A DNA stretch of 64,000 nt from Candidatus Latescibacterota bacterium (GCA_020352495.1 CP070677.1:2577501-2641500); one strand, 5' to 3'. Positions 11,637 through 47,180 are shown, numbered from the stretch's first letter. Made by a program: numbers and translations. Notes: generated from the sequence alone by a model not told the origin.

Positions 11637-11768
11637 CCAAGCGGGCACTTGCAAACCGTTCTTTGATAGGTTAGCTTTGTCAAAGGGCAGTGAGTCGACT
11701 TTTGTTGATCGGGTGTGAGGACGATCGGCGCAACCCGATGCGAAAAAGGCACATTAAGGAGTAAAACG

Positions 11769-12404
11769 ATGTATGAGGAGACGAGTTACAATTGGCGCGG
11801 TAAGGACGGCACTCGAATTAGAGTCGGTGTCGAACCGTCGCATACCCTAGCAAATGTCTGCCGTTTCGTGGTTGATCCGCCGATTTATCCCGATGGTGCC
11901 GTCCATTTTGCAGATCAGGGAAAGACGGCCTACTCGCCGCTTGCCAAGAAGCTGCTTGATCTCGACGATGTCGCCGAGGTTCTCATCGCCGGCGACTCGG
12001 TAACGGTGACAACTGAAAGTCACGCCGACTGGGAATCCCTCGCCCCCAAGATCGCAGAGGCCATTCGTATCCAAATTGATTCGGGAGACCCCTGCGTAAC
12101 CGAAGAGCACAAAAAAAGTCTTCCGTCCCCCGATGTAATCAGAGAGAAGGTCCAGACACTGATCGACACCGCAATCAATCCTGCGATCTCGTCCCATGGT
12201 GGTAGCGTCACCCTCGTCAATGTGATCGACAATAACGTCGTTTTGGAGTTTGGTGGCGGTTGCCAAGGGTGTGGGATGGCTCACGTGACCCTCAAATACG
12301 GCGTCGAAAGACTGATCCGTGAGCACGTCCCGGAGGTCGGGCAGGTTCTGGATACGACCGATCACGCGAGCGGAGAAAACCCCTACTACTCCCGGTCAAG
12401 CTGA
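11769..12404 (+). CDS. NfuA-like Fe-S cluster carrier (Nfu_N domain + NifU C-terminal CxxC domain)
   Basis: RBS AAGGAG 8 nt upstream of ATG. C-terminal ...HGGSVTLVNVIDNNVVLEFGGGCQGCGMAHVTLKYGVERLI matches the NifU/Nfu domain. The longer ORF from 11715 lacks an RBS. Confidence 0.75.
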   Translation: MYEETSYNWRGKDGTRIRVGVEPSHTLANVCRFVVDPPIYPDGAVHFADQGKTAYSPLAKKLLDLDDVAEVLIAGDSVTVTTESHADWESLAPKIAEAIRIQIDSGDPCVTEEHKKSLPSPDVIREKVQTLIDTAINPAISSHGGSVTLVNVIDNNVVLEFGGGCQGCGMAHVTLKYGVERLIREHVPEVGQVLDTTDHASGENPYYSRSS

Positions 12405-18003: not shown

Positions 18004-18924
18004 TCACTGGCCTGTCTCTTCCGTTGTCGCAGTCACGGGGTTCGTTATGTCGAGCACGATCTTCCAGGTGCTTGCGGGTTCCCGCACCCATATTCTCAAA
18101 TAACTCTCTCTCTCCTCTTCCCCTCCGTTCAACCGGCCCGAGCCAATACGCCCCGTGCCGTACGTATATCCAAGATCACCGGAACGGGACACACCACCGG
18201 AGATCGGCTCGAACGATACCCGTGGGTTCTCACCACCCAAGACAGTACGGAGACCCTCTTTGCCCGTCACAGGAAAAGCATCCATTCGGCACAACTTTAT
18301 GTCGTCCGCGGCAAACTCCTCCAAGGCGGCAAGGACCCCTCGTTTTTGGGACACGCCGGAAAACTCGCGGTCGACACCCAACAGCACATCGAGCTCGGTC
18401 CCCGCGTCGCCGGCTGAGGGACGATGTCCCTTTCGATTTCTGTTCGGCACAGCAACCGTTGATCCCAGGCTTGTCGGTTTTTCATGCACCGTTCCCACGT
18501 CGATCACGACCTGCCATCTTGCGCCCGGTTTTCGCCGCCATACCGAGACATACTCCCCAAAGATGTCTGGCTCGACACCCGCCCCCTCCACGCTGTACGT
18601 CCAAGGCCCCGTCGTGTAACCGAGATCGCCGGCACTCGCGATATCTGCAAGAACGGGTTCCCAACTGAGCAACGCCTTGGAGTCCGGCTGATCGAGATAC
18701 CACTGTCTGCCATTCACTGGTTGCGGCCGAAAGATCACGGCGTCGTCGGCAAGGTTGGCCAAGAACGCCGCGCGAACCCCCAGAGCCTCGGCGGCTTTTG
18801 CGAACCGTCGTTCTGCCTCGACAAGACCCCGGAGTTCAGCACTCACGTTCGCCGATCGCTCACAACCGACGAGCGCGAACGCGCAGGCAAACACCGCCAA
18901 TCCGATTCGTTTCAATTCTCCCAC
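18004..18924 (-). CDS. lipoprotein with two tandem NTF2-like (DUF4440/SnoaL-like) domains
   Basis: GTG start. Lipobox FALVGC. Duplicated '...YVSVWRRKPGARWQVVIDVG' / '...YLRIWVREPASTWKIVLDI' modules. Lies 17 nt downstream of the Mo-oxidoreductase::NifS gene on the same strand. Confidence 0.65.
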   Translation of the reverse strand: MGELKRIGLAVFACAFALVGCERSANVSAELRGLVEAERRFAKAAEALGVRAAFLANLADDAVIFRPQPVNGRQWYLDQPDSKALLSWEPVLADIASAGDLGYTTGPWTYSVEGAGVEPDIFGEYVSVWRRKPGARWQVVIDVGTVHEKPTSLGSTVAVPNRNRKGHRPSAGDAGTELDVLLGVDREFSGVSQKRGVLAALEEFAADDIKLCRMDAFPVTGKEGLRTVLGGENPRVSFEPISGGVSRSGDLGYTYGTGRIGSGRLNGGEEERESYLRIWVREPASTWKIVLDITNPVTATTEETGQ

Positions 18925-18940: not shown

Positions 18941-21900
18941 TTACTTGCAGGGCAAGAACCGAACGGCCGTTTCCATTTCCTCGAGCACCTGTTCGAGCGC
19001 CGACAACGCCTCGTCGATGTCCTGCCCCGTAGTTTTGTGCGACATCGAAAACCTCACCGAACAGTGAGCATCCTCTTCGGATCGTCCCATGGCGATCAAC
19101 ACATGTGTCGGTTTTGGCGATCCCGACTTGCACGCAGACCCCGACGAGATCGAGACTCCGTGCTGATCGAGCGCCACGACCAGCGATTCGCCTCGAAGTC
19201 CCGGGAGAGTCATATTGAGCGTGTTGGGAAGCCTCTTCTCACGATGTCCGTTGAGTATCGCGTCGGGGACGAGTCGTTTGACGCCCTCCTCGAGACGATC
19301 CCTCAACAGTCTCATTTCTCCGGATTTGTTGACGTTTCTTAGCGCAAGCACGGCGGCCTCTCCCATCCCGACGATCGCCGGCACGTTCTCCGTCCCCGCT
19401 CGCAATCCACCCTCCTGCATTCCCCCGTGGAGAAGCGGCTCCAGCTTGATACCCTTTCTCACGTACAGGGCGCCAACACCCTTTGGCCCGTGGAACTTGT
19501 GACCGGAGAGGGTGAGCATATCGACGCCAAGCTCTTCCACGTCGATCTTTATTTTTCCAGCTGCCTGCACGGCATCGGTGTGAAACAACACGCCCTTGGA
19601 GTGAGCGATCCGGCACAACTCCTCGATTGGGAGAATCGTTCCAACTTCGTTATTGGCCATCATGACCGACACGAGAACCGTTCGCTCATTGATCGCCGAC
19701 TCGAGCGTACTCGGATCCAAACAACCCTCTTGATCCACCTCGAGATAGGTCACCTCATGACCGTGTCGCTCCAAAAACCCGCACGTTCCCAACACAGCCG
19801 GATGTTCAACCCGGGTCGTAACAACGTGATTCAGCTGGCCCCGATGAGCGAACGCCACGCCCTTGACCGCCAGATTGTCCGCTTCCGATCCCCCACCGGT
19901 GAACATGATTCTGCGTGGACGCGCGTTTATTAGCTGACCCACCTGTCGCCGCGCCCGATCGATTGCCTCCCTGGCGTCGCGCCCGGCTCCGTGGATGCTC
20001 GATGGGTTCCCGTGTTTTGTCTCCAAATATGGCAGCATCGCTTGCCGAACCTCGTCGGCCAACTCGGTGGTTGCGTTGTTGTCGAGGTATATCCGTGTAG
20101 CAGATTTCTTCCGTTGCCGCTGTCTCCCAACCGGACGTGAGCCGCCTCCCACTTTCGAATGTTCAAATGTTTTCTCTTTCGCCGGTCTTTTCTTTTTGCG
20201 AACCTGCGCACCGCCGCCGAGCTCGTTCACTCTCACGACATCGCAAAGAAGCGCTTTGTACACGGGAAACCCCGTTATCTCGTCGTAGTTGGTGATGTCG
20301 GTGAGCTCGTTGACATTCCGCTCCCGCCACTCCCGGGGCCCAGCGGGCGCCCCTCCACCCATGTTGCATTCGACGGCACCCTCCGTGATATACTCCGTCA
20401 CACGGGCACGAAATTTGACAGCCCCTCGGGGTGTCCGTACCTCGACAAGATCACCGTCTTCGATACCTCGTGATTCGGCGTCAGCGACGTTGATCTCCAC
20501 AAAGGGTTCGGGATTGTCCTTTACAAGACCATCGATCCCGTGATGCTGCGATCGAAAATCGGTATGCAGCCGCGCGCCGGAGTTGAAAACCAGCGGGAAA
20601 TCCGCAGCCAACTCCCTGTCGGCAACTGGTCCCTCGGTGGGCTCGGTGTATTTTGGCAACGGCTCGTATCCATACTCATCGAGAATCATCGAGTGGATTT
20701 CGAACTTGCCCGTTGGCGTATCGAATCCCGGTTTTCCGTCTTTTCGAAGTCTCCCCTTCTCCCATTTCTTGAACTCCATCATTGGTGTGTCGATCTTCAC
20801 CCATCCCCCCGCGTTTTCTACATCCTCGAGCGTATACCCCGAGCCTTCGAGCGCCGTTCGAATCATCTCTTCTTCGGACTGCGGGTAGAGGTGACCGTAC
20901 CCCAACCGGTCGGCCAGCCCCGCCATGATCAAGTAGTCGTTCCGCGCCTCCCCGACCGGCTCAATCAACTTCTCCCTCAAACGAAATAGCGGACCATATA
21001 CCATATATGAATCGATCTCGAACATTGTCGTCGCTGGAAGTACCACATCAGCGTAGCTGGCGTCCGCCGTGAGCTGGCGGTCTATGCAGACAAGATATTC
21101 GAGCCTGGAGAGCGTCTCACGCCAGAGAGGTGTCTGTGGCCATGACGTCATCAGAGACGCCCCGTGAACGATCAAGCCGCGGATGCGATACGGGTCGCTC
21201 TTGAGGACCGAGTCCACGAGTCCACTTGCGTGTGACTCGCCACGATAGTCGCTGTAAACCGGAAATCGTTGACGCGCGACGGCCAGGTCGATGTTTGGGT
21301 TCTTTTGATTACAGTTCCGGTTTATCGGGAAATGGGTACGGAGCATCGCAAGCCCGATCCCCCCGGGAACGTCCAACTGACCGGCGAGCGCAAAGAGTGT
21401 GAGAACAGCACGTATCGCTTGAACGCCGGTGTTGGAATACTCCAACCCCGTATACATAACCGGACAAGCCCCGGTGGCGTTGCAGATTCGGCGAGCCAAC
21501 TCACGCGTCGTGTCGGCCGGCACACCGGTGATCGATTCCACGACCTCGGGTGAGAAGTGTTGAACGTAACTCTTGAGTTCGTCGAAACCGTGACACCAGT
21601 TTTCGGCAAAATCTTCGTCATGGAGGTCCTCATCGATCATGACTTCGATGATCCCAAGAGCGAGCGCACCGTCGGTGCCCGGTCGGATCGGAACCCACTG
21701 CGCCCCCGTTCTTCGTGTCGTCTCACTCATTCGAGGATCGATGACAATGACGTCGGCGCTTCGGTTTGCCGCCGCTTCCAGACGGTGCATGTCGAGAGGT
21801 GGCGAGTCGGTGGCTGGGTTCGCGCCCCACACGACGAGCGTTTCCGCGTTCTCGATGTCTGTGAACATGTCGACGAGCATTCTTCCCATCGTCACATGCG

Positions 21901-22450
21901 GTGCGATCATGGCAAACGACACGTAACAGAGCGCACCGACACCCATCGTGTTGGGTGATCCAAAGGGGAACAGAACGTTTGACGCCGATGATACGGCCAC
22001 GCCCTTCGGTTGATACATGTCGCACAGCGACAGTTCGAATGCCCCTCGCCCCGTATAAATCGCCACCGCCTCGGGCCCTGATTCTTTTTTTATGTTCAAC
22101 AGCCGACGCGAAATTTCGTCGTACGCCTCATCCCATGTGAATCGTTCGAACTCGCGGGACGGTTTTGGACCGACACGCCTCAGGGGGTGTCTCAGTCGAT
22201 GCGTGGAATAGACAATCTCCGGGGCGTGTTCGCCACGTCTGCAAATCATCCCCAACGGATGACCCTTGTCCGCGCGGATGTCGATCATCTCCCCATCCCG
22301 GATGGCCACTTCAACCCAACACCCGGCCGGACAAATTCCGCAGATCCCCTTCTTCCATTCGGGGCTAACGGTTCTGTAATTGGCTTTCTTCGACACCTCG
22401 AATCGCCTCTCCATCTGGCCCGATCGGAGATGTTTCCGTCTCACAGACAC
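18941..22450 (-). CDS. molybdopterin (bis-MGD) oxidoreductase fused in frame to a class V aminotransferase / cysteine desulfurase (NifS/IscS-like)
   Basis: 1169 aa single ORF. N-terminal ~770 aa: 4Fe-4S Cys motif GICGICPAGCWVEV...ICRRG, MopB domain, then a molybdopterin-dinucleotide-binding domain (...EINVADAESRGIEDGDLVEVRTPRGAVKFRARVTE...). Basic linker VRKKKRPAKEK...RQRQRKK. C-terminal ~390 aa: RIYLDNNATTE...SGHKFHGPKGVGALYVRKG (PLP-Lys)...SSGSACKSG (active-site Cys loop). No TAT signal, so cytoplasmic. Confidence 0.8.
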   Translation of the reverse strand: MSVRRKHLRSGQMERRFEVSKKANYRTVSPEWKKGICGICPAGCWVEVAIRDGEMIDIRADKGHPLGMICRRGEHAPEIVYSTHRLRHPLRRVGPKPSREFERFTWDEAYDEISRRLLNIKKESGPEAVAIYTGRGAFELSLCDMYQPKGVAVSSASNVLFPFGSPNTMGVGALCYVSFAMIAPHVTMGRMLVDMFTDIENAETLVVWGANPATDSPPLDMHRLEAAANRSADVIVIDPRMSETTRRTGAQWVPIRPGTDGALALGIIEVMIDEDLHDEDFAENWCHGFDELKSYVQHFSPEVVESITGVPADTTRELARRICNATGACPVMYTGLEYSNTGVQAIRAVLTLFALAGQLDVPGGIGLAMLRTHFPINRNCNQKNPNIDLAVARQRFPVYSDYRGESHASGLVDSVLKSDPYRIRGLIVHGASLMTSWPQTPLWRETLSRLEYLVCIDRQLTADASYADVVLPATTMFEIDSYMVYGPLFRLREKLIEPVGEARNDYLIMAGLADRLGYGHLYPQSEEEMIRTALEGSGYTLEDVENAGGWVKIDTPMMEFKKWEKGRLRKDGKPGFDTPTGKFEIHSMILDEYGYEPLPKYTEPTEGPVADRELAADFPLVFNSGARLHTDFRSQHHGIDGLVKDNPEPFVEINVADAESRGIEDGDLVEVRTPRGAVKFRARVTEYITEGAVECNMGGGAPAGPREWRERNVNELTDITNYDEITGFPVYKALLCDVVRVNELGGGAQVRKKKRPAKEKTFEHSKVGGGSRPVGRQRQRKKSATRIYLDNNATTELADEVRQAMLPYLETKHGNPSSIHGAGRDAREAIDRARRQVGQLINARPRRIMFTGGGSEADNLAVKGVAFAHRGQLNHVVTTRVEHPAVLGTCGFLERHGHEVTYLEVDQEGCLDPSTLESAINERTVLVSVMMANNEVGTILPIEELCRIAHSKGVLFHTDAVQAAGKIKIDVEELGVDMLTLSGHKFHGPKGVGALYVRKGIKLEPLLHGGMQEGGLRAGTENVPAIVGMGEAAVLALRNVNKSGEMRLLRDRLEEGVKRLVPDAILNGHREKRLPNTLNMTLPGLRGESLVVALDQHGVSISSGSACKSGSPKPTHVLIAMGRSEEDAHCSVRFSMSHKTTGQDIDEALSALEQVLEEMETAVRFLPCK

Positions 22451-22655
22451 GGCAAACGGATCCCCGCTTCGTGCGTTGTCGAAAGGACAAAAGCAGAGCC
22501 CGGTCGTACAAGCCTGATCCGACTCGACAACCGGGCTCTATTGAATCGCCATCGCGTTGGCGGTGCCCGACCGGTGGATCTTCATCACCACCGGTTTCAC
22601 ACACCGATTCACGTCCTGGTGCTGTCATCGGCAAATCGACGACAACTACTCAAGA

Positions 22656-23966
22656 CTACTTGCCTTTCGCGATGTCCTCGAGCATGGCAGTCGTCAAAGA
22701 CTTCGGCCGCTCGATCGGATAGCCAAGCGCTCGTGACCAGGTGAGGTTCGCCAGGGTCCCGATGGCGCGCCCGATGCCAAAGAGCACCGTGTAGAACGAG
22801 TAATCAGTGACACCGTAATACCACTGAATGACTCCGGACTGCGCGTCGACGTTTGGCCACGGATTCTTTGCTTTCCCCTGTTCCTGGAGTACGCCGGGTG
22901 CGACTTTGTAGATCATGCTGATCACCTTGAACAGCGGGTAATCCGGCAAGTTCTTCAGACAGAACTCACGCTGCGACGTATAGCGCGGGTCTGTCTTCCG
23001 GAGCACCGCGTGCCCGTAGCCCGGGATTACCTGTCCGCTGTTCAGCGTTTCCCACAGCGCGTCTTTGACCACGTCCTCCGTCGGCTCCTTGTCTCCGAGC
23101 TTCTCCATGAAGTTCTGCGTCCACCGCAGCACCTCCTCGTTCGCGAGACCGTGGAGCGGTCCGGCCAGACCATTGATCCCCGCCGACAGCGCGTAGTAGC
23201 AGTCGGACAGCGCGGACCCAACGAGGTGAATCGCGTGCGCCGAGACGTTCCCCGACTCGTGATCCGAGTGCAGGATGAAATACATACGCGCAACGTCGTC
23301 GTAGGGATGATCGATCCCCATCATGTGGGCGAAATTCCCGCCCAGGTCGAGTTTTGGATCCGGCGCGACGATGTCACCGTTCTTGAATTTGTGACGATAG
23401 ATGAACGCCCCGATGGTCGGCAGCTTCGCCATCAAATTGCAGCAGTCCTCGTACATCGGGTCCCAGAGCTCCATCTTGCTCAGCCCCTCGCGGTACTTCT
23501 TGGCAAAGACGGACTCGCGCTGCATCGACAGGATCGCCGTCGAGAACATCGTCATCGGGTGGGTGTCCGGAGACATCGCCCGAAGAACATCCCACACGTA
23601 TGATGGAACTTCGGAACGGGCCTTGAAGTCGGCAGCCACTTCCTGCGCCTGCTCGAGCGTCGGTACATCACCGGTCAAGATGAAATACCAAAAGCCCTCC
23701 ACGTACGGGTAGTCGCTACCCGGCACCTTTGGCAGTGCTTCGAAGGTCTCCGGTATTGTCTTGCCACGGAACCGGATCCCTTCCATCGGGTCCAGATACG
23801 AGGTGTCGGTCACCAGACACCTGACCCCACGGGCTCCGCCGATGACCTGGGCAATCGTCACATCGCTGACTTTGACATCCCCGTGCTCCTTGAGGAGCTT
23901 GGTCGTGCGAGGACGATGCTCGTCGATTTTTTGCGCCAGCACTTTCTTGAGCGTGGACATGCTCAC
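22656..23966 (-). CDS. gltA: citrate synthase (eukaryotic-like/type I, ~436 aa)
   Basis: Full-length match to citrate synthase motifs (GYGHAVLRKTDPRYTSQREF; MFSTAILSMQRES; HSDHESGNVSAHAIHLVGSALSD). Confidence 0.9.
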   Translation of the reverse strand: MSMSTLKKVLAQKIDEHRPRTTKLLKEHGDVKVSDVTIAQVIGGARGVRCLVTDTSYLDPMEGIRFRGKTIPETFEALPKVPGSDYPYVEGFWYFILTGDVPTLEQAQEVAADFKARSEVPSYVWDVLRAMSPDTHPMTMFSTAILSMQRESVFAKKYREGLSKMELWDPMYEDCCNLMAKLPTIGAFIYRHKFKNGDIVAPDPKLDLGGNFAHMMGIDHPYDDVARMYFILHSDHESGNVSAHAIHLVGSALSDCYYALSAGINGLAGPLHGLANEEVLRWTQNFMEKLGDKEPTEDVVKDALWETLNSGQVIPGYGHAVLRKTDPRYTSQREFCLKNLPDYPLFKVISMIYKVAPGVLQEQGKAKNPWPNVDAQSGVIQWYYGVTDYSFYTVLFGIGRAIGTLANLTWSRALGYPIERPKSLTTAMLEDIAKGK

Positions 23967-35675: not shown

Positions 35676-36111
35676 TACACCCTCCTCTCGGAAATTGAAC
35701 CGGTGACAGGCGCCTCGGGTGTATCTGCGCCTCGCGGGCCAAAATTCAACTTACTGCGAAACCAAACCGCGCTGCTCGACGTTCTTTTTGCTGGTTGTAA
35801 TATCTTTGTTGGATTTGGCTACACGGTGACTTCGATGTACGCTCAGTAATGGAACGTGTTGTGGTTCTCGGCGAAGCCAAACGACGTATTCGCCCCATAA
35901 GAACGCCCCTGACGTCGTGCGTTGCATATTATACCACAAACGGTTGTTGAAATCCACGTCTAACCTCTTCAAAAGCCAAAGCAAACGATACATGCACGAA
36001 TTCTTCCGAGGGCTCTTCCACACCCTCGACCGAACCATTCCGGGCTGGACAACTCCACCACTGGCCGCTATGTTTGAACGAAGTGCAAACGAGGAACCGA
36101 GTGTCGTTACC

Positions 36112-36591
36112 ATGCCGACTAGTGCGATTTTGATCAGCAGTGACCGCGCCGCGAGCGGAATCCGTCCTGATCGGACCACCGCACTGCTTTCCGACAAGCT
36201 GAGTGCCTTGGGTTTTGACGTTGTTCACAACGCGGTCGTCCCAGATGACAAACTTGGCATTGTCAAAACATTGCGCGCGTGGGTTAATGAAGGAATTGAA
36301 GTGATCCTGATATCCGGCGGGACCGGCGTGGCCCCCACCGATGTCACGCCTGAAGCGACGCTCGAGGTCATTACTCGTCGCGTACCGGGTATGGAGGAAG
36401 CGATGCGCCGCGTATCGCACGAGAAGACTCCGTTTGCGATGCTTGCACGCGGGGTCGTCGGAATCGCCCGGTCGAGTCTCGTCATCAACTTGCCGGGCAG
36501 TCCGACGGGCGCAGTCGAGAATCTCGAGGTCGTCGCTCCCGTCTTGGAACACGCGCTCGAGCTAATTCAAGGGGGCACACCCGACGGATGA
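36112..36591 (+). CDS. mogA: molybdopterin adenylyltransferase MogA/MoaB
   Basis: MPTSAILISSDRAASG...ILISGGTGVAPTDVTPEA...INLPGSPTGAVENLE are MogA/MoaB signatures. An alternative upstream start at 36070 is possible. ATGA overlap with moaA. Confidence 0.8.
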   Translation: MPTSAILISSDRAASGIRPDRTTALLSDKLSALGFDVVHNAVVPDDKLGIVKTLRAWVNEGIEVILISGGTGVAPTDVTPEATLEVITRRVPGMEEAMRRVSHEKTPFAMLARGVVGIARSSLVINLPGSPTGAVENLEVVAPVLEHALELIQGGTPDG

Positions 36592-37595
36592 GCGATCACG
36601 AAACACATCCCAGCAGTTGTCTGACGGATCTCAGCGGCCGGAGACTCTCGTACCTCCGTATCTCGCTTACCGACAGGTGCAACCTCAGATGCGACTACTG
36701 TTATCACTCCGTGAACGAATCACAAATCGCGGAGAGGGAACTCTCCGATGACGAGGTGATCCGTCTCGTCCGTGTCTTTTCCAAAATGGGGTTCGACAAG
36801 ATCCGTTTCACCGGCGGCGAGCTTCTCTTGCGCGATCGCGTAGTCGATCTGATACGAGAGACGGCCGTCACAGCCGGTGTGTCACTGATAGGAATTACGA
36901 CAAATGGTCTTTTGCTGGAGAAACACTTGCCGGGGCTCATCGACGCCGGTCTCAATCGACTCAATGTGAGTTTGGACACGTTGGATCGGGAAAAATTCAA
37001 ACGCATCACGGGAGTCGACGGTCTCGATCGGGTAACCAGCGTAATCTCGCGAGCCCTGGAAACGAATGTGTTCCCGCGAGTCAAAATCAATACCTTGGTC
37101 ATGCGGGGCGTGAACGATGACGAAATCGATAAGCTCGCCGACTGGGGGCTCTCTCGCCGGACCGATCTGAGGTTTATTGAGTTTATGCCGACCCGTGGTT
37201 CGGGTTGGGAAGAGAGTCGCTTTGTCAGTCAAGACGAGATGATTGAACGCGTCCGTGGTCCACTCGACATCGACCCGGTGATCGAGCCCAACAGTGGGCC
37301 CGCCTTGACATTCAAACAACGGGGCCGCCCGGGGCGCGTCAGCTTCATCTCCGCGGTCAGCCGAAGCTTTTGCAACGAGTGTAACCGGCTTCGCGTCACA
37401 TCCAGGGGTACAGTCGTTGGCTGTCTTTTTAGTGGGAAAGAAATACGCATTCGCGAGCTTCTCGATCCGCGCGTCGATGATGAAACGATCATTGCCGTCA
37501 TCAAGACCCTGACACGATCACAAGATTTCAGACGAGGGATCGAAAATCGAACCCGCACCTGGGAAGGCCCGTCAATGAGGGGGATTGGGGGATGA
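36588..37595 (+). CDS. moaA: GTP 3',8-cyclase MoaA (radical SAM)
   Basis: Radical-SAM cluster motif LTDRCNLRCDYCY. C-terminal FCNECNRLRVTSRGTVVGCLF is the MoaA auxiliary-cluster motif. Confidence 0.9.
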   Translation: MSDHETHPSSCLTDLSGRRLSYLRISLTDRCNLRCDYCYHSVNESQIAERELSDDEVIRLVRVFSKMGFDKIRFTGGELLLRDRVVDLIRETAVTAGVSLIGITTNGLLLEKHLPGLIDAGLNRLNVSLDTLDREKFKRITGVDGLDRVTSVISRALETNVFPRVKINTLVMRGVNDDEIDKLADWGLSRRTDLRFIEFMPTRGSGWEESRFVSQDEMIERVRGPLDIDPVIEPNSGPALTFKQRGRPGRVSFISAVSRSFCNECNRLRVTSRGTVVGCLFSGKEIRIRELLDPRVDDETIIAVIKTLTRSQDFRRGIENRTRTWEGPSMRGIGG

Positions 37596-38620
37596 GCAGG
37601 CGTAAACCCACACATCTCGACGACGCCGGCAAAGCGCGGATGGTTGACATCGGGGGCAAGAGAGAGACCAATCGTCGTGCTGTTGCGTCCGCGCGGGTCG
37701 TGGTTTCCGATGAGTTGCTCGTCATGTTGAAGAACAACACCCTAGAGAAAGGTGATGCGATCGCAGCCGCCCGCCTCGCCGGCATCCAGGCGGCCAAACG
37801 AACGGGCGACCTGATTCCCCTCTGTCACCCCCTGCCCCTCAGCTATGTCGACGTCGATCTCCAGCTCATTGACGAACCGCCTTCCATCGTTATCACGACC
37901 GAGGCGCGGACCCATTACCGGACGGGCGTCGAGATGGAGGCTCTGACGGCGGCGGCTGTTGCGGCATTGACGATTTATGACATGGGGAAGAGCATCGATC
38001 GAATGATCGCGATCGAACACGTTCGGCTCGAGAGCAAAAGCGGCGGCGCCAGCGGGGAGTGGTCGCGGCGCGATTCGTCCCCTAGCGAAACCGGTTTGAA
38101 CCCGAAACCTCGTATCAAACGAGAGGGACGCATGACGAAGCCAAAACAAAACAAAGCGCAAGTGCACAAGATTTCTGTTGCCCCGACCACGGGTGAAAAA
38201 AAACAGAACGTCGCTCTGGCGGTGATCACTGCCGGCCGGGGCGTAGAAGGGGACGCTCATTCGACGACGGACCGCCCCCTGAGCCTGCTCCCTCTGGAAA
38301 GCTTCCATAAGGTGCAACACCCCGATCTCGATGTTCACCCAGGCGACTTTGCGGAAAACGTCACCACGTCCGGGCTCGATTTTACACGGCTTCGCGTCGG
38401 TTCGCGCTTGCGTCTCGGCGCCTCCGTCGAGATCGAAGTCGTTCAAATTGGAAAAGAATGTCATAACGGGTGCGTAATCAGAGAGACCGTGGGCGATTGC
38501 ATCATGCCGAGTGAGGGCGTTTTTGCCCGTGCCCTCACCAGTGGTGAGATACGAGAAGGTGATCCTATCGAGATCCTGGAGAGTGGCGATCGCGTTTCCG
38601 AGACTCCCACTGTCGGTTGA
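37592..38620 (+). CDS. moaC: cyclic pyranopterin monophosphate synthase MoaC fused to a C-terminal MOSC domain
   Basis: ATGA overlap with moaA. N-terminal 160 aa is MoaC (MVDIGGK...IPLCHPLPLSYVDVD...EMEALTAAAVAALTIYDM). Linker. C-terminal ~150 aa is MOSC-like (VEGDAH...PGDFAENVTTSGLDFTRLRVGSRLRLGASVEIEVVQIGKECH.GC...GDCIMP..GVFARAL). Confidence 0.8.
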   Translation: MSRRKPTHLDDAGKARMVDIGGKRETNRRAVASARVVVSDELLVMLKNNTLEKGDAIAAARLAGIQAAKRTGDLIPLCHPLPLSYVDVDLQLIDEPPSIVITTEARTHYRTGVEMEALTAAAVAALTIYDMGKSIDRMIAIEHVRLESKSGGASGEWSRRDSSPSETGLNPKPRIKREGRMTKPKQNKAQVHKISVAPTTGEKKQNVALAVITAGRGVEGDAHSTTDRPLSLLPLESFHKVQHPDLDVHPGDFAENVTTSGLDFTRLRVGSRLRLGASVEIEVVQIGKECHNGCVIRETVGDCIMPSEGVFARALTSGEIREGDPIEILESGDRVSETPTVG

Positions 38621-38696
38621 CCCGCCGTGTTTCGATTTTTGCAGAGCAATCCCAAATCGCTAAGATGACAATACGTATATCGCTTGCGAGGCTGGC

Positions 38697-39281
38697 TTGA
38701 GTACACTTTACCCGGACATCACGGGCTATATTCTGGCGGGCGGACGCAGCCGCCGATTTGGCAAAGACAAACGCCAGATTCTCATTGGTGGGATCTCTCT
38801 ATTGGAGAAGACGCGTCGACTTCTCGTGGATCTTCTTGGCCGCGAACCGTTCGTCGTGGGCGACAACCTGTCCGATCTGGTTCTCGACCCTTCGACAATA
38901 GTCCCCGATTCCCGTCCGGGTTGCGGTCCCCTGGGCGGTTTGGTTGCCGCCCTTTCTCATTCACCAACGGTCTGGAGTCTTGTTATGGCGGCCGACATGC
39001 CGTTTCTGACGATCGAGGATCTTCGTCGGCTTGCCGATGCCCGAGCAGAGAGATTCGATGTGGTAGCCTTAAGTAGGACCGGCGCACCGGAGCCTCTTGC
39101 CGCGCTGTATCACATTCGACGTCTGCACTACTGGCACGAGTGTCTCGATTCCGGTCTGTATTCACTGGCCAAGAGCATCAAGACCCTAGATTGCAAGACG
39201 GTGATACTTGGCGCCTCCTCGAGATCCCTTCAAAACATAAATACTCCAGACGTCTTGGACGTAATCGAGAACGATTTATGA
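38697..39281 (+). CDS. mobA: molybdenum cofactor guanylyltransferase MobA
   Basis: TTG start. ITGYILAGGRSRRFGKDK...GPLGGLVAAL motifs. Stop overlaps the mobB ATG. Confidence 0.8.
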   Translation: MSTLYPDITGYILAGGRSRRFGKDKRQILIGGISLLEKTRRLLVDLLGREPFVVGDNLSDLVLDPSTIVPDSRPGCGPLGGLVAALSHSPTVWSLVMAADMPFLTIEDLRRLADARAERFDVVALSRTGAPEPLAALYHIRRLHYWHECLDSGLYSLAKSIKTLDCKTVILGASSRSLQNINTPDVLDVIENDL

Positions 39282-39808
39282 CGACACACTTTTTCCGGAT
39301 CACTGGAGCGAAAAACAGTGGTAAAACCACACTCATTGTGAAGTTGACGGAGGAACTGATTGGCAGGGGATACCGCGTCGGCACAATGAAACACAGCTCA
39401 CACGATCACGAGTTCGACCGGTCGGGATCGGATTCTCATCATCACTCCGTGGCTGGAAGCAGCGCGACAATCATCCTCTCCCCCAACAAGCTCGTTTGCC
39501 ACACAAAACGCCCGCCCAGCGAAGAACTCTTTGCGATCATCCGGCAAGCCTACCACGACATCGACATTGTGTTGTGTGAGGGTTTCGCGAGATTCCCGGT
39601 TGCTCCTCAACCGACACCGATGATCGAATGCGTGGCTGCCGGTGAAGATCCCCTCTTCACTGGTGATCCGGACCTGGTGGCCGTCGTGGCGGACAAAACA
39701 CTCCCCGTCGATGTTCCGCTGTTTCCGCACTCCGCGACCACCGAACTGGCGACTTGGTTGGAGAAGACTTTTCACCTCGCGCCCGACACAAACACCGGTT
39801 CGCCATAG
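39278..39808 (+). CDS. mobB: molybdopterin-guanine dinucleotide biosynthesis adaptor MobB
   Basis: MTTHFFRITGAKNSGKTTLIVKL (P-loop)...GTMKHSSHDHEFD are characteristic of MobB. Confidence 0.8.
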   Translation: MTTHFFRITGAKNSGKTTLIVKLTEELIGRGYRVGTMKHSSHDHEFDRSGSDSHHHSVAGSSATIILSPNKLVCHTKRPPSEELFAIIRQAYHDIDIVLCEGFARFPVAPQPTPMIECVAAGEDPLFTGDPDLVAVVADKTLPVDVPLFPHSATTELATWLEKTFHLAPDTNTGSP

Positions 39809-39829
39809 CCGGCCGAAAGGCAACTGTCC

Positions 39830-41050
39830 ATGGACGAGATGAAAGACAGCCCACACACTCGTACGCCACAATCCGCCCCCTCTCACGAGGCGGCGTCGGA
39901 ACGAGTCCCGACAACGATCAGACAGAACATCCGTCAAATGCGGTTCAATCTTGCGGAACTCTCAGGCTCAATGGGTGACCTGGGGACGTTTCTCCCGCTG
40001 GTCGCCGGGATGGCGTTTGTTTGTGAAATGGACCTCGGGGTCATTCTGATTCTTGCCGGTATTGCCAACATAACCGTTGGAATCGTCTTTGGCATGCCGG
40101 TGCCCGTACAGCCGATGAAGGCGATCGCCGCTGTCGCGGTTGCCGAATCGCTTCTCCCCGACCAAATAGCAGCCGCCGGTCTAATCGTCGGGGCGGTCAT
40201 GTTGGCTCTCGGAGCGACACGGATCGTCCAATATGTTGAAAAAGTCATCCCGCTCCCCGTGGTAAGAGGGATACAGCTGGGTGTCGGACTCAAGCTAATG
40301 TTGCAGGCCGTACGTCTCGTGGCCGAGACCTCTTGGATCGGTCTGGACAGCGTGGCGGTCGGTCTTGGCGCCGCCTGTCTCATTGTGTTTGTGAACCGGT
40401 GGAAAAGATCTCCCGGTGCGCTCGTTCTGTTTGCCGCAGGTGTCGTCGTCGCCCTGTTGGAGACCCCGGCGCTTACACGATCCCTCTCGATCGGGGCACC
40501 AGAGTTTGTTTTCATCCTTCCGTCGGCGCGCTCCTGGTTCGACGGTTTTGTTCATGGCGCGGTTCCCCAGCTCCCTCTCACCGTGCTCAATTCCGTAATT
40601 GCCGTCTGCGCGTTAAGCGGTGATCTATTTCCCGGACGCCGCATACCGGCACCCACGATGGCCTCGTCCGTTGGACTCATGAATTTGCTCACATGTTGGT
40701 TTGGGGCCGTCCCCATGTGTCACGGATCGGGCGGACTTGCCGGGCAGTACTACTTTGGCGCCAGGAGCGGTGGCTCCATGGTGATGTTGGGAATCATCAA
40801 TCTCACCGTTGGACTCGTTCTTGGAGCCGCAGCAGCAGCCATCATCCACGCTTACCCCCGGTCGTTTCTTGGGGTGATGCTCTTTTTCGCCGGATTTGAG
40901 CTGGCCAAACCGGCGCGCGATCAGAGGGGTGGACGAGAGATATCGATCACAATAGTCACCGCGGCGCTGATCGTCGGTATCAATACGCTCGTCGGATTCG
41001 CGACCGGGATGGCACTGGCAGCCGTGTTGTCGCTCAGACGTACTCGCTAG
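39830..41050 (+). CDS. MOT1-family (PF16983-like) molybdate transporter, polytopic membrane protein
   Basis: Signature ELSGSMGDLGTFLPL near the N-terminus, which I recall as the conserved MOT1 motif. About 10 predicted TM segments. Sits directly downstream of mobB. Confidence 0.6.
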   Translation: MDEMKDSPHTRTPQSAPSHEAASERVPTTIRQNIRQMRFNLAELSGSMGDLGTFLPLVAGMAFVCEMDLGVILILAGIANITVGIVFGMPVPVQPMKAIAAVAVAESLLPDQIAAAGLIVGAVMLALGATRIVQYVEKVIPLPVVRGIQLGVGLKLMLQAVRLVAETSWIGLDSVAVGLGAACLIVFVNRWKRSPGALVLFAAGVVVALLETPALTRSLSIGAPEFVFILPSARSWFDGFVHGAVPQLPLTVLNSVIAVCALSGDLFPGRRIPAPTMASSVGLMNLLTCWFGAVPMCHGSGGLAGQYYFGARSGGSMVMLGIINLTVGLVLGAAAAAIIHAYPRSFLGVMLFFAGFELAKPARDQRGGREISITIVTAALIVGINTLVGFATGMALAAVLSLRRTR

Positions 41051-43734: not shown

Positions 43735-45123
43735 TTACTCCGTGACACGTCGTGCACTCTGTCCGGTCGGATCCAGCCCAGCAATTGCCATGGCCAGATC
43801 GTTGGACATTTGCCCGCGTGGTGTTGGGATCTCCATGTCCATGTAGTATTCGCACCGGTCGATCAACTCTCCCACCGCAGCACCCACCACCGCGTAGACA
43901 AAGAATCTCTCAAATTCGAATGCCACGACGGCGGTCGGGACGACCAGGCCTATGAAGACCCGTGTGAGAGACAGGGCCCATCTCGGGTTCCCGCGGTGCG
44001 TTCTCAGATGATGCTTCCCAATCGCGTACAAAATGAGTCTGAGCACGGCGAGCGTAACGACCGTGGGGACATCCCTCGCAATGAGACCGGCGACAAACAA
44101 ACCGACGAGAACCACCTGACCACTGTGCTGGTTCAGCCCCCTCGCCCCGGTCACACCATACAACCGGTCCATGGCGAACAACGCGGCAAAGCCGATCCCG
44201 GCACACATCCAACCCACCGAGCTCAGGTGGGGCACCCCGATCAGGTAAAGCGTGGCCGCTGCCAAAAACAAAGGAAACAGGATGACTTCGCGGCTAAGCC
44301 ATGACTGCCTCCAGTTGAGCATCGCCCGGTGGGCGCGTCTCTTCCTTCCAATGTGGAGCGTGCTGAGCAGGAAGCCAGCGACTCCGGCTGTCAAAAACAG
44401 GGCGGGGTCGATCCTCACCGTTGAGACAACTGTCGCTGTCAGGTATCCGGTCATCCACGCAGCAATCAGTGTGAAAACGACCAAGCTCCATTCGTTGCTC
44501 AGCGAAATCTTCCTGTCACGAGTGGTTTTCCGGTCGTCCCCGACCGAAACGGACAAACCCGTCCCCCCACTGCCACTGGCCCTTGGGAACGATCGTTCCT
44601 CCCGCAAATCCACAAACTGGATCGCCGGTTTGGCACCGCTGTCGGGAAATCCGAGAGTATTGCGGTTCCCGTCTTGCAGATTGTCGTCAGCGATCCCCAA
44701 CGCCCCCGTCGGGCAGAGCGACACGCACACGGGGTCCTCCCCTACGCTCAGGCGGTGTTCGCAGAACGTGCACTTCTCCATCACTTCCGCCACAGGATCG
44801 AACTGCGGCGCGTCGTATGGACACACCCACGAACAGTATTTGCAGCCGATACAGAGTTCTTTGTCTATTGTGACCGCACCGGTCACGGGATCCTTCGAGT
44901 ATGCCAGCGCCGGGCAGTACTTCATACATGGCGGGTCCAGGCAGTGGTAACACGCCCGCGAGTGATGAAATACGGGTATCCCTGGAATCCGTGCGGCGTT
45001 GAACGTGTTTATCCGCCGCCACGCCATCCCGATCGGGAGCTCGTTCTCGATGGCGCACGCTATCTGACAAGCCGAGCAGCCCGTGCATTTGTTTACGTCG
45101 AACAAAAATCCCTTCTGCATCAC
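43735..45123 (-). CDS. 4Fe-4S ferredoxin-type (DmsB/PsrB-like, 4-cluster) subunit fused to C-terminal polytopic membrane-anchor domain
   Basis: N-terminal CTGCSACQIAC, CYHCLDPPCMKYCP, CIGCKYCSWVCP, CTFCEHR...CVSLCP cluster motifs. C-terminal ~250 aa has about 7 TM helices. 4-nt overlap with the upstream Mo catalytic subunit. Confidence 0.75.
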   Translation of the reverse strand: MMQKGFLFDVNKCTGCSACQIACAIENELPIGMAWRRINTFNAARIPGIPVFHHSRACYHCLDPPCMKYCPALAYSKDPVTGAVTIDKELCIGCKYCSWVCPYDAPQFDPVAEVMEKCTFCEHRLSVGEDPVCVSLCPTGALGIADDNLQDGNRNTLGFPDSGAKPAIQFVDLREERSFPRASGSGGTGLSVSVGDDRKTTRDRKISLSNEWSLVVFTLIAAWMTGYLTATVVSTVRIDPALFLTAGVAGFLLSTLHIGRKRRAHRAMLNWRQSWLSREVILFPLFLAAATLYLIGVPHLSSVGWMCAGIGFAALFAMDRLYGVTGARGLNQHSGQVVLVGLFVAGLIARDVPTVVTLAVLRLILYAIGKHHLRTHRGNPRWALSLTRVFIGLVVPTAVVAFEFERFFVYAVVGAAVGELIDRCEYYMDMEIPTPRGQMSNDLAMAIAGLDPTGQSARRVTE

Positions 45124-47180
45124 CGCGCTCTTTCGACCTCCACAAGGGCGTCATGAAACGCCGCGCCATGCGCCATATCCGTCTCGCGCCCCAGGGAACA
45201 GATATTGACCGTTCCGCCTTCCGAGATCCACCAGCCGTTGGTGACCGAGACACATCCCCTCTTGATGCTATAGTCGTAACGTGCCTCGAGCTCGATCGAT
45301 CCCCGTTCGTTGAACACCCGCACCATTGTCCGATCCGTTATCCCTCTACTCCTGGCGTCCTCGGGGTGTATCTCGACAAAAGGGGCAGGACTGAGATCAC
45401 GAATCATATCCAGATTATTGAACTGTGAGTGGATCCTGTCTTTCGTGTTTGGCGTGAGAAAATAAAGCGGATATTTTCCCGACTCCGGTGTTTTTTGCCG
45501 GATCGACTCCTCTGGCTCCACGTACGTCGGGAGCGGATCGACGCCCCACCAATCTTTCGCCTGTTGTGACACCAGTTCGATCTTTCCCGATGGTGTCTGG
45601 AACACCATGTCCGAGAACGCCACCTCCTCTTGCCCTGGCGCCAATACCGGTCCCTCTCTCAGCCGCTCGATTGAAAGTTCGGGAAACGGCTCGAGCTTTT
45701 TTTTAAGAAAAGCCTCGACGTCGGCATCCGTCGGGCCTGGGATACACTCCTCTATTATATCCTTTTCCGGAATGCCAAGACGCTGGGCCAGCCTGAAATA
45801 CATCTCGGACTCGGGTTTCACATTACCGGGTGGGTCCATCACCTTCTGTTTGAGCTGAATGTACGTGTGCCAATAGGCGTTGATCACATCCGTCTGTTCG
45901 AACATCGTTTTGGCAGGAAGAACGATGTCGGCTTCTCGCGCCGTGTCGGTCAAAAACTGTTCAACAACGACGCGAAAATCCAGCGACCGAAATGCCTCGA
46001 GCACCGTGTCGGTCTCCGGATTCTGTGTGACCGGATTTCCACGTTCGACCCACACCATCTTGAGCGGTGGATCATCGGTTTCGATCATGTCCCGCCCGAG
46101 TTTGGCTGTCGATACTGATACTCGAACGACACCATCCGGTTCTTTCGGGGGATAAAAGGCGATCGGGTCTTTCACCTTGTCGAATATATGGCTCTGGAGA
46201 TTGGCAAAGATCCATCCCGCTCCGGGTTTGCCGATGTTTCCCGTAATTGCCAGAAGCGCAAGGATCGCCCGCATCGTCTGCCCACTATTCGTGTAACGCT
46301 GCATCCCGAACCCCGCGTTGATCGTCACGGGTTTTACCTCTCCAATCAAACCGGCGATTTCGTGGATGTAACCGACGGGAACGTCGGAGATCTGCGAGGC
46401 CCTCTCCGGTGTCATCCCTTCGACCATCTCGGCAAACTCGGAGAACCCATGAACGTGGGCGTCGATGAACTCACCGTCGAGTTTGTCGTTTCGGATCAGA
46501 AGATGGGCGATGGCCAATGCCACTGCCCCGTCCGATCCCGGTCTAGGTTGTATGAGGAGCTGCGCCCGCTCGGATGATTCGGTTCGTCGTGGATCGATGA
46601 CGATCAACTTCGCCCCTCCATCGAGCGCCTCGTTGATAAAGGGCATCTGATGAATGTTTGTCTCAGCGGCGTTCTTCCCCCAGAGAACGATCAGCTTGGC
46701 CTTCGCGATATCCCATGGGGCGTTGTGCTTGTTCTCACCAAGCGTAAGCCTCGTCGCTTCGAGACCGGCCGACCAACACAGATCACCAAATGTCGTTGTG
46801 CATCCCCCGTAGAGCTTCCAGAACGCCGTCCCTACGATGTTCAACAACCCTTTTGTCCCGCTTCCGTTGTAATAAAAGACGCTCTGTGGCCCAAACGCGG
46901 CCCGGTAATGCCTGAGACGTTCCGCGATCGTCTCCAACGCCACATCCCATGAGATCGGCTCGAATTCGCCGCTCCAGCCAATTTTTCTCAGTGGATCGAG
47001 GATACGGTGTGGAGAGTGAACGCGCTCGATGTAACTGAGCCCCTTGAGACAGGGGCCTTCGCGTGTGGCTTGGTTTCCGGGATGGGATTCGATCCTTTTG
47101 AGGCGGTTGTTCTCCACGTACACCTTCATCGTGCACGTGCTGTAACAGTTGCGCGGACACCCCGTCGTATACACTTTCAT
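45120..47180 (-). CDS. molybdopterin (bis-MGD) oxidoreductase catalytic subunit, cytoplasmic (no TAT signal)
   Basis: N-terminal FeS motif CPRNCYSTC...C. MopB-family motifs (VLWGKNAAETN; LIVIDPRRTE). C-terminal molybdopterin-dinucleotide-binding domain (FVEIHPEDARSRGITDRTMVRVFNERGS). Confidence 0.85.
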   Translation of the reverse strand: MKVYTTGCPRNCYSTCTMKVYVENNRLKRIESHPGNQATREGPCLKGLSYIERVHSPHRILDPLRKIGWSGEFEPISWDVALETIAERLRHYRAAFGPQSVFYYNGSGTKGLLNIVGTAFWKLYGGCTTTFGDLCWSAGLEATRLTLGENKHNAPWDIAKAKLIVLWGKNAAETNIHQMPFINEALDGGAKLIVIDPRRTESSERAQLLIQPRPGSDGAVALAIAHLLIRNDKLDGEFIDAHVHGFSEFAEMVEGMTPERASQISDVPVGYIHEIAGLIGEVKPVTINAGFGMQRYTNSGQTMRAILALLAITGNIGKPGAGWIFANLQSHIFDKVKDPIAFYPPKEPDGVVRVSVSTAKLGRDMIETDDPPLKMVWVERGNPVTQNPETDTVLEAFRSLDFRVVVEQFLTDTAREADIVLPAKTMFEQTDVINAYWHTYIQLKQKVMDPPGNVKPESEMYFRLAQRLGIPEKDIIEECIPGPTDADVEAFLKKKLEPFPELSIERLREGPVLAPGQEEVAFSDMVFQTPSGKIELVSQQAKDWWGVDPLPTYVEPEESIRQKTPESGKYPLYFLTPNTKDRIHSQFNNLDMIRDLSPAPFVEIHPEDARSRGITDRTMVRVFNERGSIELEARYDYSIKRGCVSVTNGWWISEGGTVNICSLGRETDMAHGAAFHDALVEVERAR

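Follow-up and report, generated by a model that had tools for sequence, protein, structure and literature searches.

Metallopterin-dependent ergothioneine synthase (MES), reported by Beliaeva and Seebeck (JACS Au 2022; PMC9516567), combines a bis-molybdopterin guanine dinucleotide (bis-MGD) module with a class-V cysteine desulfurase in a single polypeptide chain; in the enzyme of Caldithrix abyssi (CaMES, 1136 amino acids [aa]) the N-terminal bis-MGD module occupies residues 1-718 and carries Fe-S cysteines at positions 14, 17, 21 and 48 and the ligand Cys153, and both Cys1097 and the penultimate Cys1135 are strictly conserved in MES (PMC9516567). It shares its substrate, trimethylhistidine, and its pathway product with EgtB, an O2-dependent non-heme iron sulfoxide synthase, and with EanB, a rhodanese-like sulfur transferase that is likewise anaerobic and persulfide using, but the folds and cofactors of EgtB and EanB are unrelated to those of MES, which is the only one of these enzymes to depend on molybdenum or tungsten. 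Here we examine a gene of the same two-module architecture at positions 18941..22450 (minus strand) of a 64,000-nucleotide stretch of DNA, the window, from a Candidatus Latescibacterota bacterium (GCA_020352495.1 CP070677.1:2577501-2641500). From its sequence, the encoded protein is very probably an MES and an ordinary orthologue of the published family. A first-pass annotation of the window was aware of no description of the fusion and suggested that it would be a new solution to cofactor sulfuration; this view does not survive comparison with the literature, as the architecture, the function and the persulfide-to-Mo relay were all published in 2022 (PMC9516567).

The published experiments provide the framework within which the Latescibacterota protein can be read. 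CaMES, hvMES, EaMES and AbMES all produced ergothioneine from trimethylhistidine in Escherichia coli, and the yield obtained with hvMES (83-153 µM ergothioneine) was the second best of the four (PMC9516567). Production by CaMES was abolished by the substitutions K952A, C1074S, C153S and C1135S, the last of these causing a 2000-fold decrease, whereas C1097S lowered it only two-fold; the K952A and C153S variants did not complement each other when co-expressed, and transfer of sulfur is hence intramolecular (PMC9516567). The K952A variant nevertheless continued to swap 34S between trimethylhistidine and ergothioneine, which shows the C-S step to be reversible; the authors concluded that sulfur is supplied at each turnover, and they advanced the sequence of relay events and the chemistry of Mo=S only tentatively (PMC9516567). 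Since K952A still exchanges sulfur, the Mo module of CaMES needs no desulfurase for its maturation.

Read on the minus strand, which the first-pass annotation had left unstated, the region 18941..22450 is an uninterrupted open reading frame (ORF) of 1169 aa that begins with a GTG at 22450 and ends with a TAA stop at 18941-18943 (ORF call and translation). The start of the gene is probably the ATG at 22414, residue 13 of this longest ORF, which gives a protein of 1157 aa as in the GenBank call; the identical GenBank protein (P0001, 1157 aa, encoded on a 4.3-Mb contig of a Candidatus Latescibacterota metagenome-assembled genome [MAG]) is named 'IscS subfamily cysteine desulfurase'. The N-terminal [4Fe-4S] domain (Molybdop_Fe4S4, PF04879; residues 31-82, 22205..22360) contains Cys37, Cys40, Cys44 and Cys70 and is followed by the molybdopterin (bis-MGD) domain (PF00384; residues 85-514, 20909..22198; Pfam E = 5e-40) and by the molybdopterin dinucleotide-binding cap (Molydop_binding, PF01568; residues 627-733, 20252..20572; Pfam E = 8e-21). 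The C-terminal module is a class-V, NifS/IscS-type cysteine desulfurase (Aminotran_5, PF00266; residues 787-1146, 19013..20092; Pfam E = 4e-79) that scores 507 bits against the NCBIfam model NifS TIGR03402, the match covering positions 1-373 of the 379 in the profile; its best match in the Protein Data Bank (PDB) is the cysteine desulfurase 9wep (370 bits). All these features lie on the minus strand, and translation and Pfam agree with the single molybdoenzyme-desulfurase ORF of the first-pass annotation.

Between the two modules lies a basic, Gly-rich and sequence-variable linker (residues 737-786; 20093..20242, minus strand), the basic character of which, already remarked upon in the first-pass annotation, is evident from its composition of 16 Arg/Lys and 7 Gly in 50 residues. 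Its 50 aa exceed the family median of 40 by 10 aa, and no longer linker was seen (range among homologues, 33-50). The translation across the module junction reads ...KKSATRIYLDNNATT, as had been described, and at this junction the desulfurase module indeed lacks a separate start codon. Many homologues have a semi-conserved Cys-Gly in the linker (e.g., 'ACGP'); it is not found in the window protein (columns ~790-840 of alignment A1).

Homologues of MES were defined in the supporting information of the original paper (Table S1) by conservation of Cys153, Lys952, Cys1074, Cys1097 and Cys1135, in CaMES numbering (PMC9516567). Every one of these residues has an aligned counterpart in the window protein, namely Cys175, Lys985, Cys1107, Cys1130 and Cys1168, and the bis-MGD (MopB) module and class-V desulfurase reside on one polypeptide (PF04879, PF00384, PF01568 and PF00266). 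The four cluster cysteines, Cys37, Cys40, Cys44 and Cys70, correspond to CaMES Cys14, Cys17, Cys21 and Cys48; they align with both CaMES and hvMES and are invariant in 34 homologues. Cys175 (TGT, 21926..21928, minus strand), the predicted Mo/W ligand and the equivalent of CaMES Cys153, lies within GVGALCYVS and is invariant in the same 34 sequences; its aligned counterparts in the polysulfide reductase PsrA ('SLCTA') and in acetylene hydratase ('YMCIG') are the Cys residues that ligate the metal in those enzymes.

In the desulfurase module, the pyridoxal phosphate (PLP) Schiff-base lysine is Lys985 (AAG, 19496..19498, minus strand; CaMES Lys952) in SGHKFHGPKG, and the persulfide loop cysteine is Cys1107 (TGC, 19130..19132, minus strand; CaMES Cys1074) in SSGSACKSG. 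Both motifs, SGHKFHGPKG and SSGSAC, had been picked out from the sequence in the first-pass annotation, which also recognized that the assignment would fall if alignment failed to retain the PLP lysine and active cysteine; both residues align with their CaMES counterparts, and Cys1107 is invariant in the 34 homologues. Cys1130 (TGT, 19061..19063, minus strand; CaMES Cys1097), in DAHCSVRF, is also invariant in homologues. The C-terminal tail (residues 1147-1169; 18944..19012, minus strand) ends in ...RFLPCK, and its penultimate residue, Cys1168 (codon 18947-18949), aligns with the second relay cysteine of CaMES, Cys1135; from Lys985 to the C terminus the numbering is that of CaMES plus 33. The terminal residues R1164, F1165, L1166, P1167, C1168 and K1169 are invariant in the 34 homologues, the ...RFLPCK terminus is identical in hvMES, and 70 of 72 full-length relatives carry Cys at the penultimate position. 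Overall identity is at least 64.8% to hvMES over 1159 aa and at least 56.7% to CaMES over 1154 aa, these values being lower bounds because both sequences were taken from optical character recognition text of the supporting information. Thus, the window protein (1157-1169 aa) belongs to the same length class as CaMES (1136 aa) and has the same modules and key residues. It differs from the published MES proteins in its longer linker, in being known here from sequence alone under a desulfurase name in GenBank, and in its source phylum, Latescibacterota, which a text search of the supporting information of the MES paper did not find (PMC9516567).

The first-pass annotation had raised the possibility that two neighbouring genes were merged in the assembly because a stop codon had been lost, or an in-frame indel introduced, at the junction. 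Beyond that a priori possibility we found nothing to recommend an artefact, and the orthologue search disposes of it. In a search of a 5.8-billion-protein database, the best 120 protein clusters, which derive from independent NCBI, JGI, ENA and Logan assemblies and from many phyla, all had 96-99% query coverage, 71-76% identity and lengths of 1129-1202 aa. Among GTDB species, at least 529 genomes carry a relative; in almost all of 80 GTDB matches that were fetched the two modules lie in one frame, with 57-76% identity, and the relatives include Gemmatimonadota, Dehalococcoidia, KSB1, Calditrichota, Actinomycetota and cable bacteria. Only the linker is poorly conserved when 34 homologues are aligned, both catalytic modules being ~78% identical per column, and a linker of 33-50 aa is present in all homologues compared. 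A lost stop codon or chimeric assembly is excluded by the occurrence of the same fusion in the best 120 clusters and in almost all of the fetched GTDB matches; moreover, the full-length recombinant fusions are active and transfer in trans fails (PMC9516567). We accordingly give an artefactual origin virtually no credence.

By analogy with the published enzymes, the PLP enzyme centred on Lys985 would convert L-cysteine to alanine and hold the sulfur as a persulfide on the loop Cys1107. The sulfane sulfur would then pass to Cys1168 on the flexible tail and, within the same polypeptide, to the Cys175-ligated bis-MGD Mo (or W) to give Mo(VI)=S; the sulfido ligand would be attacked by the imidazole C2 of N-alpha-trimethylhistidine (hercynine), ergothioneine would be released, and the next persulfide would re-sulfurate the Mo(IV) centre. 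The overall reaction would proceed without an external redox partner or electron carrier, which fits the single Fe-S cluster, the lack of partner subunits and the occurrence of the gene as a solitary gene in unrelated neighbourhoods of different genomes. We found no twin-arginine signal peptide in the ORF translation, the N terminus of which was read by eye, and no PsrB/PsrC-type genes flank the gene, so the enzyme is likely to be cytoplasmic and to lack a dedicated electron-transfer partner. That the Latescibacterota protein performs the same chemistry we infer from its anatomy, its conserved residues and its homology; its trimethylhistidine would be either imported or supplied by an egtD gene located in another part of the genome.

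The first-pass annotation had likewise let the desulfurase donate its sulfur to the molybdoenzyme to which it is tethered, and in this respect it came near to the published mechanism; it had, however, envisaged a one-time maturation, and this part fails in the face of substrate sulfur delivery at every turnover and of the exchange retained by K952A. Precedents for desulfurase-dependent sulfuration are found in the action of IscS and FdhD on formate dehydrogenase (FDH) and in ABA3/MOCOS, in which a NifS-like domain is combined with a MOSC domain: there, too, the persulfide of a class-V desulfurase becomes a terminal Mo sulfido ligand. These systems act a single time, on cofactor that is still free or bound to a chaperone and awaits insertion, whereas in MES it is the assembled enzyme that is sulfurated, at each turnover, and the sulfur departs with the product. 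The eukaryotic-type Mo cofactor sulfurase represented by ABA3/MOCOS was considered as an identity for the window protein and rejected, as neither a MOSC domain (Pfam scan) nor an FdhD domain was found in the fusion ORF and the MOSC domain of the window belongs to a separate MoaC gene.

If the window protein were an FDH-like redox Mo enzyme, its tethered desulfurase would install the sulfido ligand once and replace the IscS-to-FdhD route. Desulfurase-dependent sulfuration of Mo cofactors is established for FDH, xanthine dehydrogenase and ABA3 (PMC9516567). The best-scoring NCBIfam Mo-enzyme model for the window protein is indeed Fdh-alpha (TIGR01591), but its 290 bits fall far below the cut-off of 666, and the nearest solved relatives are PsrA and acetylene hydratase rather than FDH. 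The ligand Cys175 is followed by Tyr176 and not by His, the Sec/Cys-His pair at the metal site being a feature of formate dehydrogenases. In addition, desulfurase-dead CaMES K952A retains an active Mo module, as judged by 34S exchange (PMC9516567), and a stoichiometric maturation enzyme of 400 aa would seem wasteful. An FDH-like function is, in our estimation, highly improbable.

The closest solved folds of the Mo module are those of PsrA from Thermus thermophilus (2vpw, 219 bits) and acetylene hydratase (2e7z, 218 bits), both of which share with it a single [4Fe-4S] cluster and a Cys-ligated bis-MGD; PsrA, in addition, handles sulfane sulfur at Mo. Neither enzyme carries a desulfurase fusion or forms a C-S bond. 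The match to PsrA, together with a score of 250 bits for PhsA (NCBIfam), could be taken to indicate a cysteine-to-sulfide machine, in which the desulfurase persulfide feeds a PsrA-like persulfide/polysulfide reductase module and H2S is released. However, PhsA has a cut-off of 694 bits, acetylene hydratase matches as well as PsrA does, and neither a Tat signal nor an evident electron donor is apparent; PsrB/PsrC-type genes do not adjoin the gene either here, where the flanking genes encode citrate synthase and a DUF4440 protein, or in relatives. Furthermore, the family members that have been assayed make ergothioneine, and relatives of the window protein are linked to egtD. Sulfide production is therefore a very unlikely function for the protein.

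Two further identities were considered and rejected. An acetylene hydratase is contradicted by the alignment of CQSCDINC of that enzyme with CGICPAGC of the window protein, in which the catalytic Asp13 is replaced by Pro41 after the second cluster cysteine. A stand-alone housekeeping NifS/IscS of ~400 aa does not account for the desulfurase module, which is fused in all relatives and scores 507 against a cut-off of 530.75 for NifS and 395 against 548 for IscS; the only desulfurase model to exceed its cut-off is the broad subfamily model NF002806 (309 versus 304).

Genomic context provides further evidence that the family to which the window protein belongs functions in ergothioneine synthesis. 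When the ORFs flanking 83 related loci were clustered, an ORF of ~329 aa was found directly adjoining MES in 37 of the 83, and this neighbour is a histidine-specific S-adenosylmethionine-dependent methyltransferase of the EgtD type (PF10017, 328 bits). EgtD performs the first step of every ergothioneine pathway, and an EgtD-type methyltransferase was present in 55 of the ~80 MES genomes of the original paper, a supporting rather than a defining feature (PMC9516567). Adjacency of egtD is universal in the Dehalococcoidia-type subgroup, the tails of which read RLMPCK or RLIPCK; in the RFLPCK subgroup, which includes the window protein, egtD adjoins MES in 7 of 38 loci.

Other genes recur beside egtD and MES. 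A pyridine-nucleotide disulfide oxidoreductase of 464-467 aa is found there at seven loci (e.g., L054, 14554-16125, and L037, 14866-16269) and also adjoins egtD in L085 (1888-3282) and L086, and a DinB/mycothiol-S-transferase-like protein of 175 aa occurs at seven loci (e.g., L031, 14649-15176, and L022, 14630-15157). It is plausible that these are a candidate ergothioneine-disulfide reductase and a candidate ergothioneine S-transferase, respectively.

A number of observations weigh against the identification of the window protein as an MES. The remaining 31 of the 38 RFLPCK-subgroup loci have no adjacent egtD, and no egtD was found in the 64-kb window by tblastn with 37 EgtD sequences (best E = 0.04); Pfam scans of the larger window ORFs revealed no PF10017 domain, and none of the best 120 matches listed in a database search with an EgtD query came from the source contig, which speaks neither for nor against an egtD in the rest of the genome. 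The only assayed member of the RFLPCK subgroup is hvMES. A PDB sequence search recovered no solved MES structure, PsrA (2vpw) being the best match of the Mo module, and substrate specificity is not readable from the sequence. An AlphaFold2 model of the full protein, built from a low-diversity alignment of 34 sequences, had a mean predicted local distance difference test score of 57 and a predicted template modelling score of 0.41, with most of the Mo module below 50; the model was too poor for the geometry of a Cys1107-Cys1168-Cys175 relay, and nothing was drawn from it in this regard.

The lack of egtD from the window, and from the immediate vicinity of MES in those 31 loci of its subgroup, would be explained by an MES-type transferase that acts here on another acceptor, either scavenged hercynine or a different imidazole or heterocycle, instead of self-made trimethylhistidine. 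The existence of unfused Mo-module homologues in unrelated contexts lends this explanation some support, as does the suggestion by Beliaeva and Seebeck that related Mo enzymes may sulfurate other heterocycles (PMC9516567). On the other hand, hvMES belongs to the same RFLPCK subgroup and makes ergothioneine, the seven subgroup loci with adjacent egtD point in the same direction, and conservation within the subgroup is 71-76%, with no divergent active site seen. MES often has no egtD beside it. In a KSB1-type 'Deferribacteres' MAG and in a Calditrichaeota MAG, MES is surrounded by unrelated housekeeping genes; a second Calditrichaeota MAG has egtD next to a gene for a disulfide oxidoreductase, and the 10.4 kb of that contig examined contain no MES. 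This last case suggests that a missing egtD in the vicinity of MES is little indication that the genome lacks one, and it detracts from the argument for another acceptor. We consider a different acceptor to be unlikely, and synthesis of ergothioneine from trimethylhistidine remains the preferred function of the window protein. Were another acceptor to be used across most of the RFLPCK members that are not linked to egtD, MES-type Mo=S sulfur transfer would constitute a class of reaction that extends beyond one pathway step.

The unfused homologues of the Mo module (P0243, P0244 and P0245) are proteins of 724-735 aa with 47-53% identity and no desulfurase module; they keep the Cys at the metal-ligand position and a C-terminal GFPVYK motif. 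At the sole locus examined (L084, 2431-4638), neither a desulfurase (NifS) gene nor egtD was found near the gene for the stand-alone Mo module, which is thus not simply a split MES.

The fusion itself is far more widespread than the ~80 genomes originally listed would indicate, the GTDB species counted above being drawn from many phyla. Identity is 71-76% among MES proteins from MAGs of Latescibacterota, Calditrichota, Gemmatimonadota, Acidobacteriota, Methylomirabilia and Gammaproteobacteria, and such high identity across phyla points to strong constraint or to recent horizontal spread, if not to both. Public records mostly label these proteins 'IscS subfamily cysteine desulfurase' or 'cysteine desulfurase NifS'; these names hide an enzyme of the ergothioneine pathway, and the capacity for anaerobic ergothioneine synthesis is consequently under-annotated in MAGs. 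As the enzyme class was published in 2022, the window gene has little value as a discovery, and its residual value lies in the correction of annotation and in the wider distribution that it brings to light. Well-behaved MES orthologues would be useful targets for structure determination, given that the PDB sequence search found no solved example.

Upstream of the MES gene and on the same strand lies a citrate synthase gene (22656..23966, minus strand). The two are separated by a hairpin, AGAGCCCGG...CCGGGCTCT (22495..22539, minus strand; 45 nt together with its T-run), which has a perfect stem of 9 bp followed by the T-rich GCTTTTGTCCTTTC; it was read from the sequence, the terminator scan having caught the inner part of the stem, and is probably an intrinsic terminator. 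With a terminator at this position, MES is likely to form a separate transcription unit with its own promoter. A promoter scan found no sigma-70 consensus upstream of MES, a result that is uninformative for this phylum. Downstream, the NTF2-like lipoprotein gene of the first-pass annotation is present as a DUF4440 (NTF2-like) ORF with a lipoprotein-like N terminus; the spacing differs slightly, the ORF beginning 16 nt past the MES stop if the GTG at 18924 is used, as opposed to the 17 nt that had been given. Among the 83 related loci, neither the citrate synthase gene nor the DUF4440 gene falls in a shared cluster of MES neighbours.

Elsewhere in the window, a Mo cofactor cluster (35917-41050, plus strand) encodes a protein with a MoCF_biosynth domain, MoaA, a MoaC-MOSC fusion, MobA, MobB and a MOT1-type molybdate transporter of the major facilitator superfamily. 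The genes for the bis-MGD cofactor lie 13-19 kb from MES and form a complete set, which fits an active Mo/W enzyme. The MoaC-MOSC fusion (37592..38620), to which the first-pass annotation had drawn attention in connection with the MES fusion, is real, but no link between the two is needed, as it represents a standard NCBIfam family (NF011069). The window also encodes a second cytoplasmic molybdopterin oxidoreductase (45120-47180, minus strand; 686 aa), with an Fe4S4 motif at its extreme N terminus, that is 30% identical to the Mo module of MES; in NCBIfam it comes closest to the DmsA/YnfE subfamily, with a score of 324 bits that lies below the cut-off, and its gene is followed by that of a DmsB-like 4Fe-4S protein of 462 aa (43735-45123, minus strand). 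An Fe-S scaffold of the Nfu/NifU type (Nfu_N plus NifU) is encoded at 11715-12404 (plus strand), 6.5 kb from MES.

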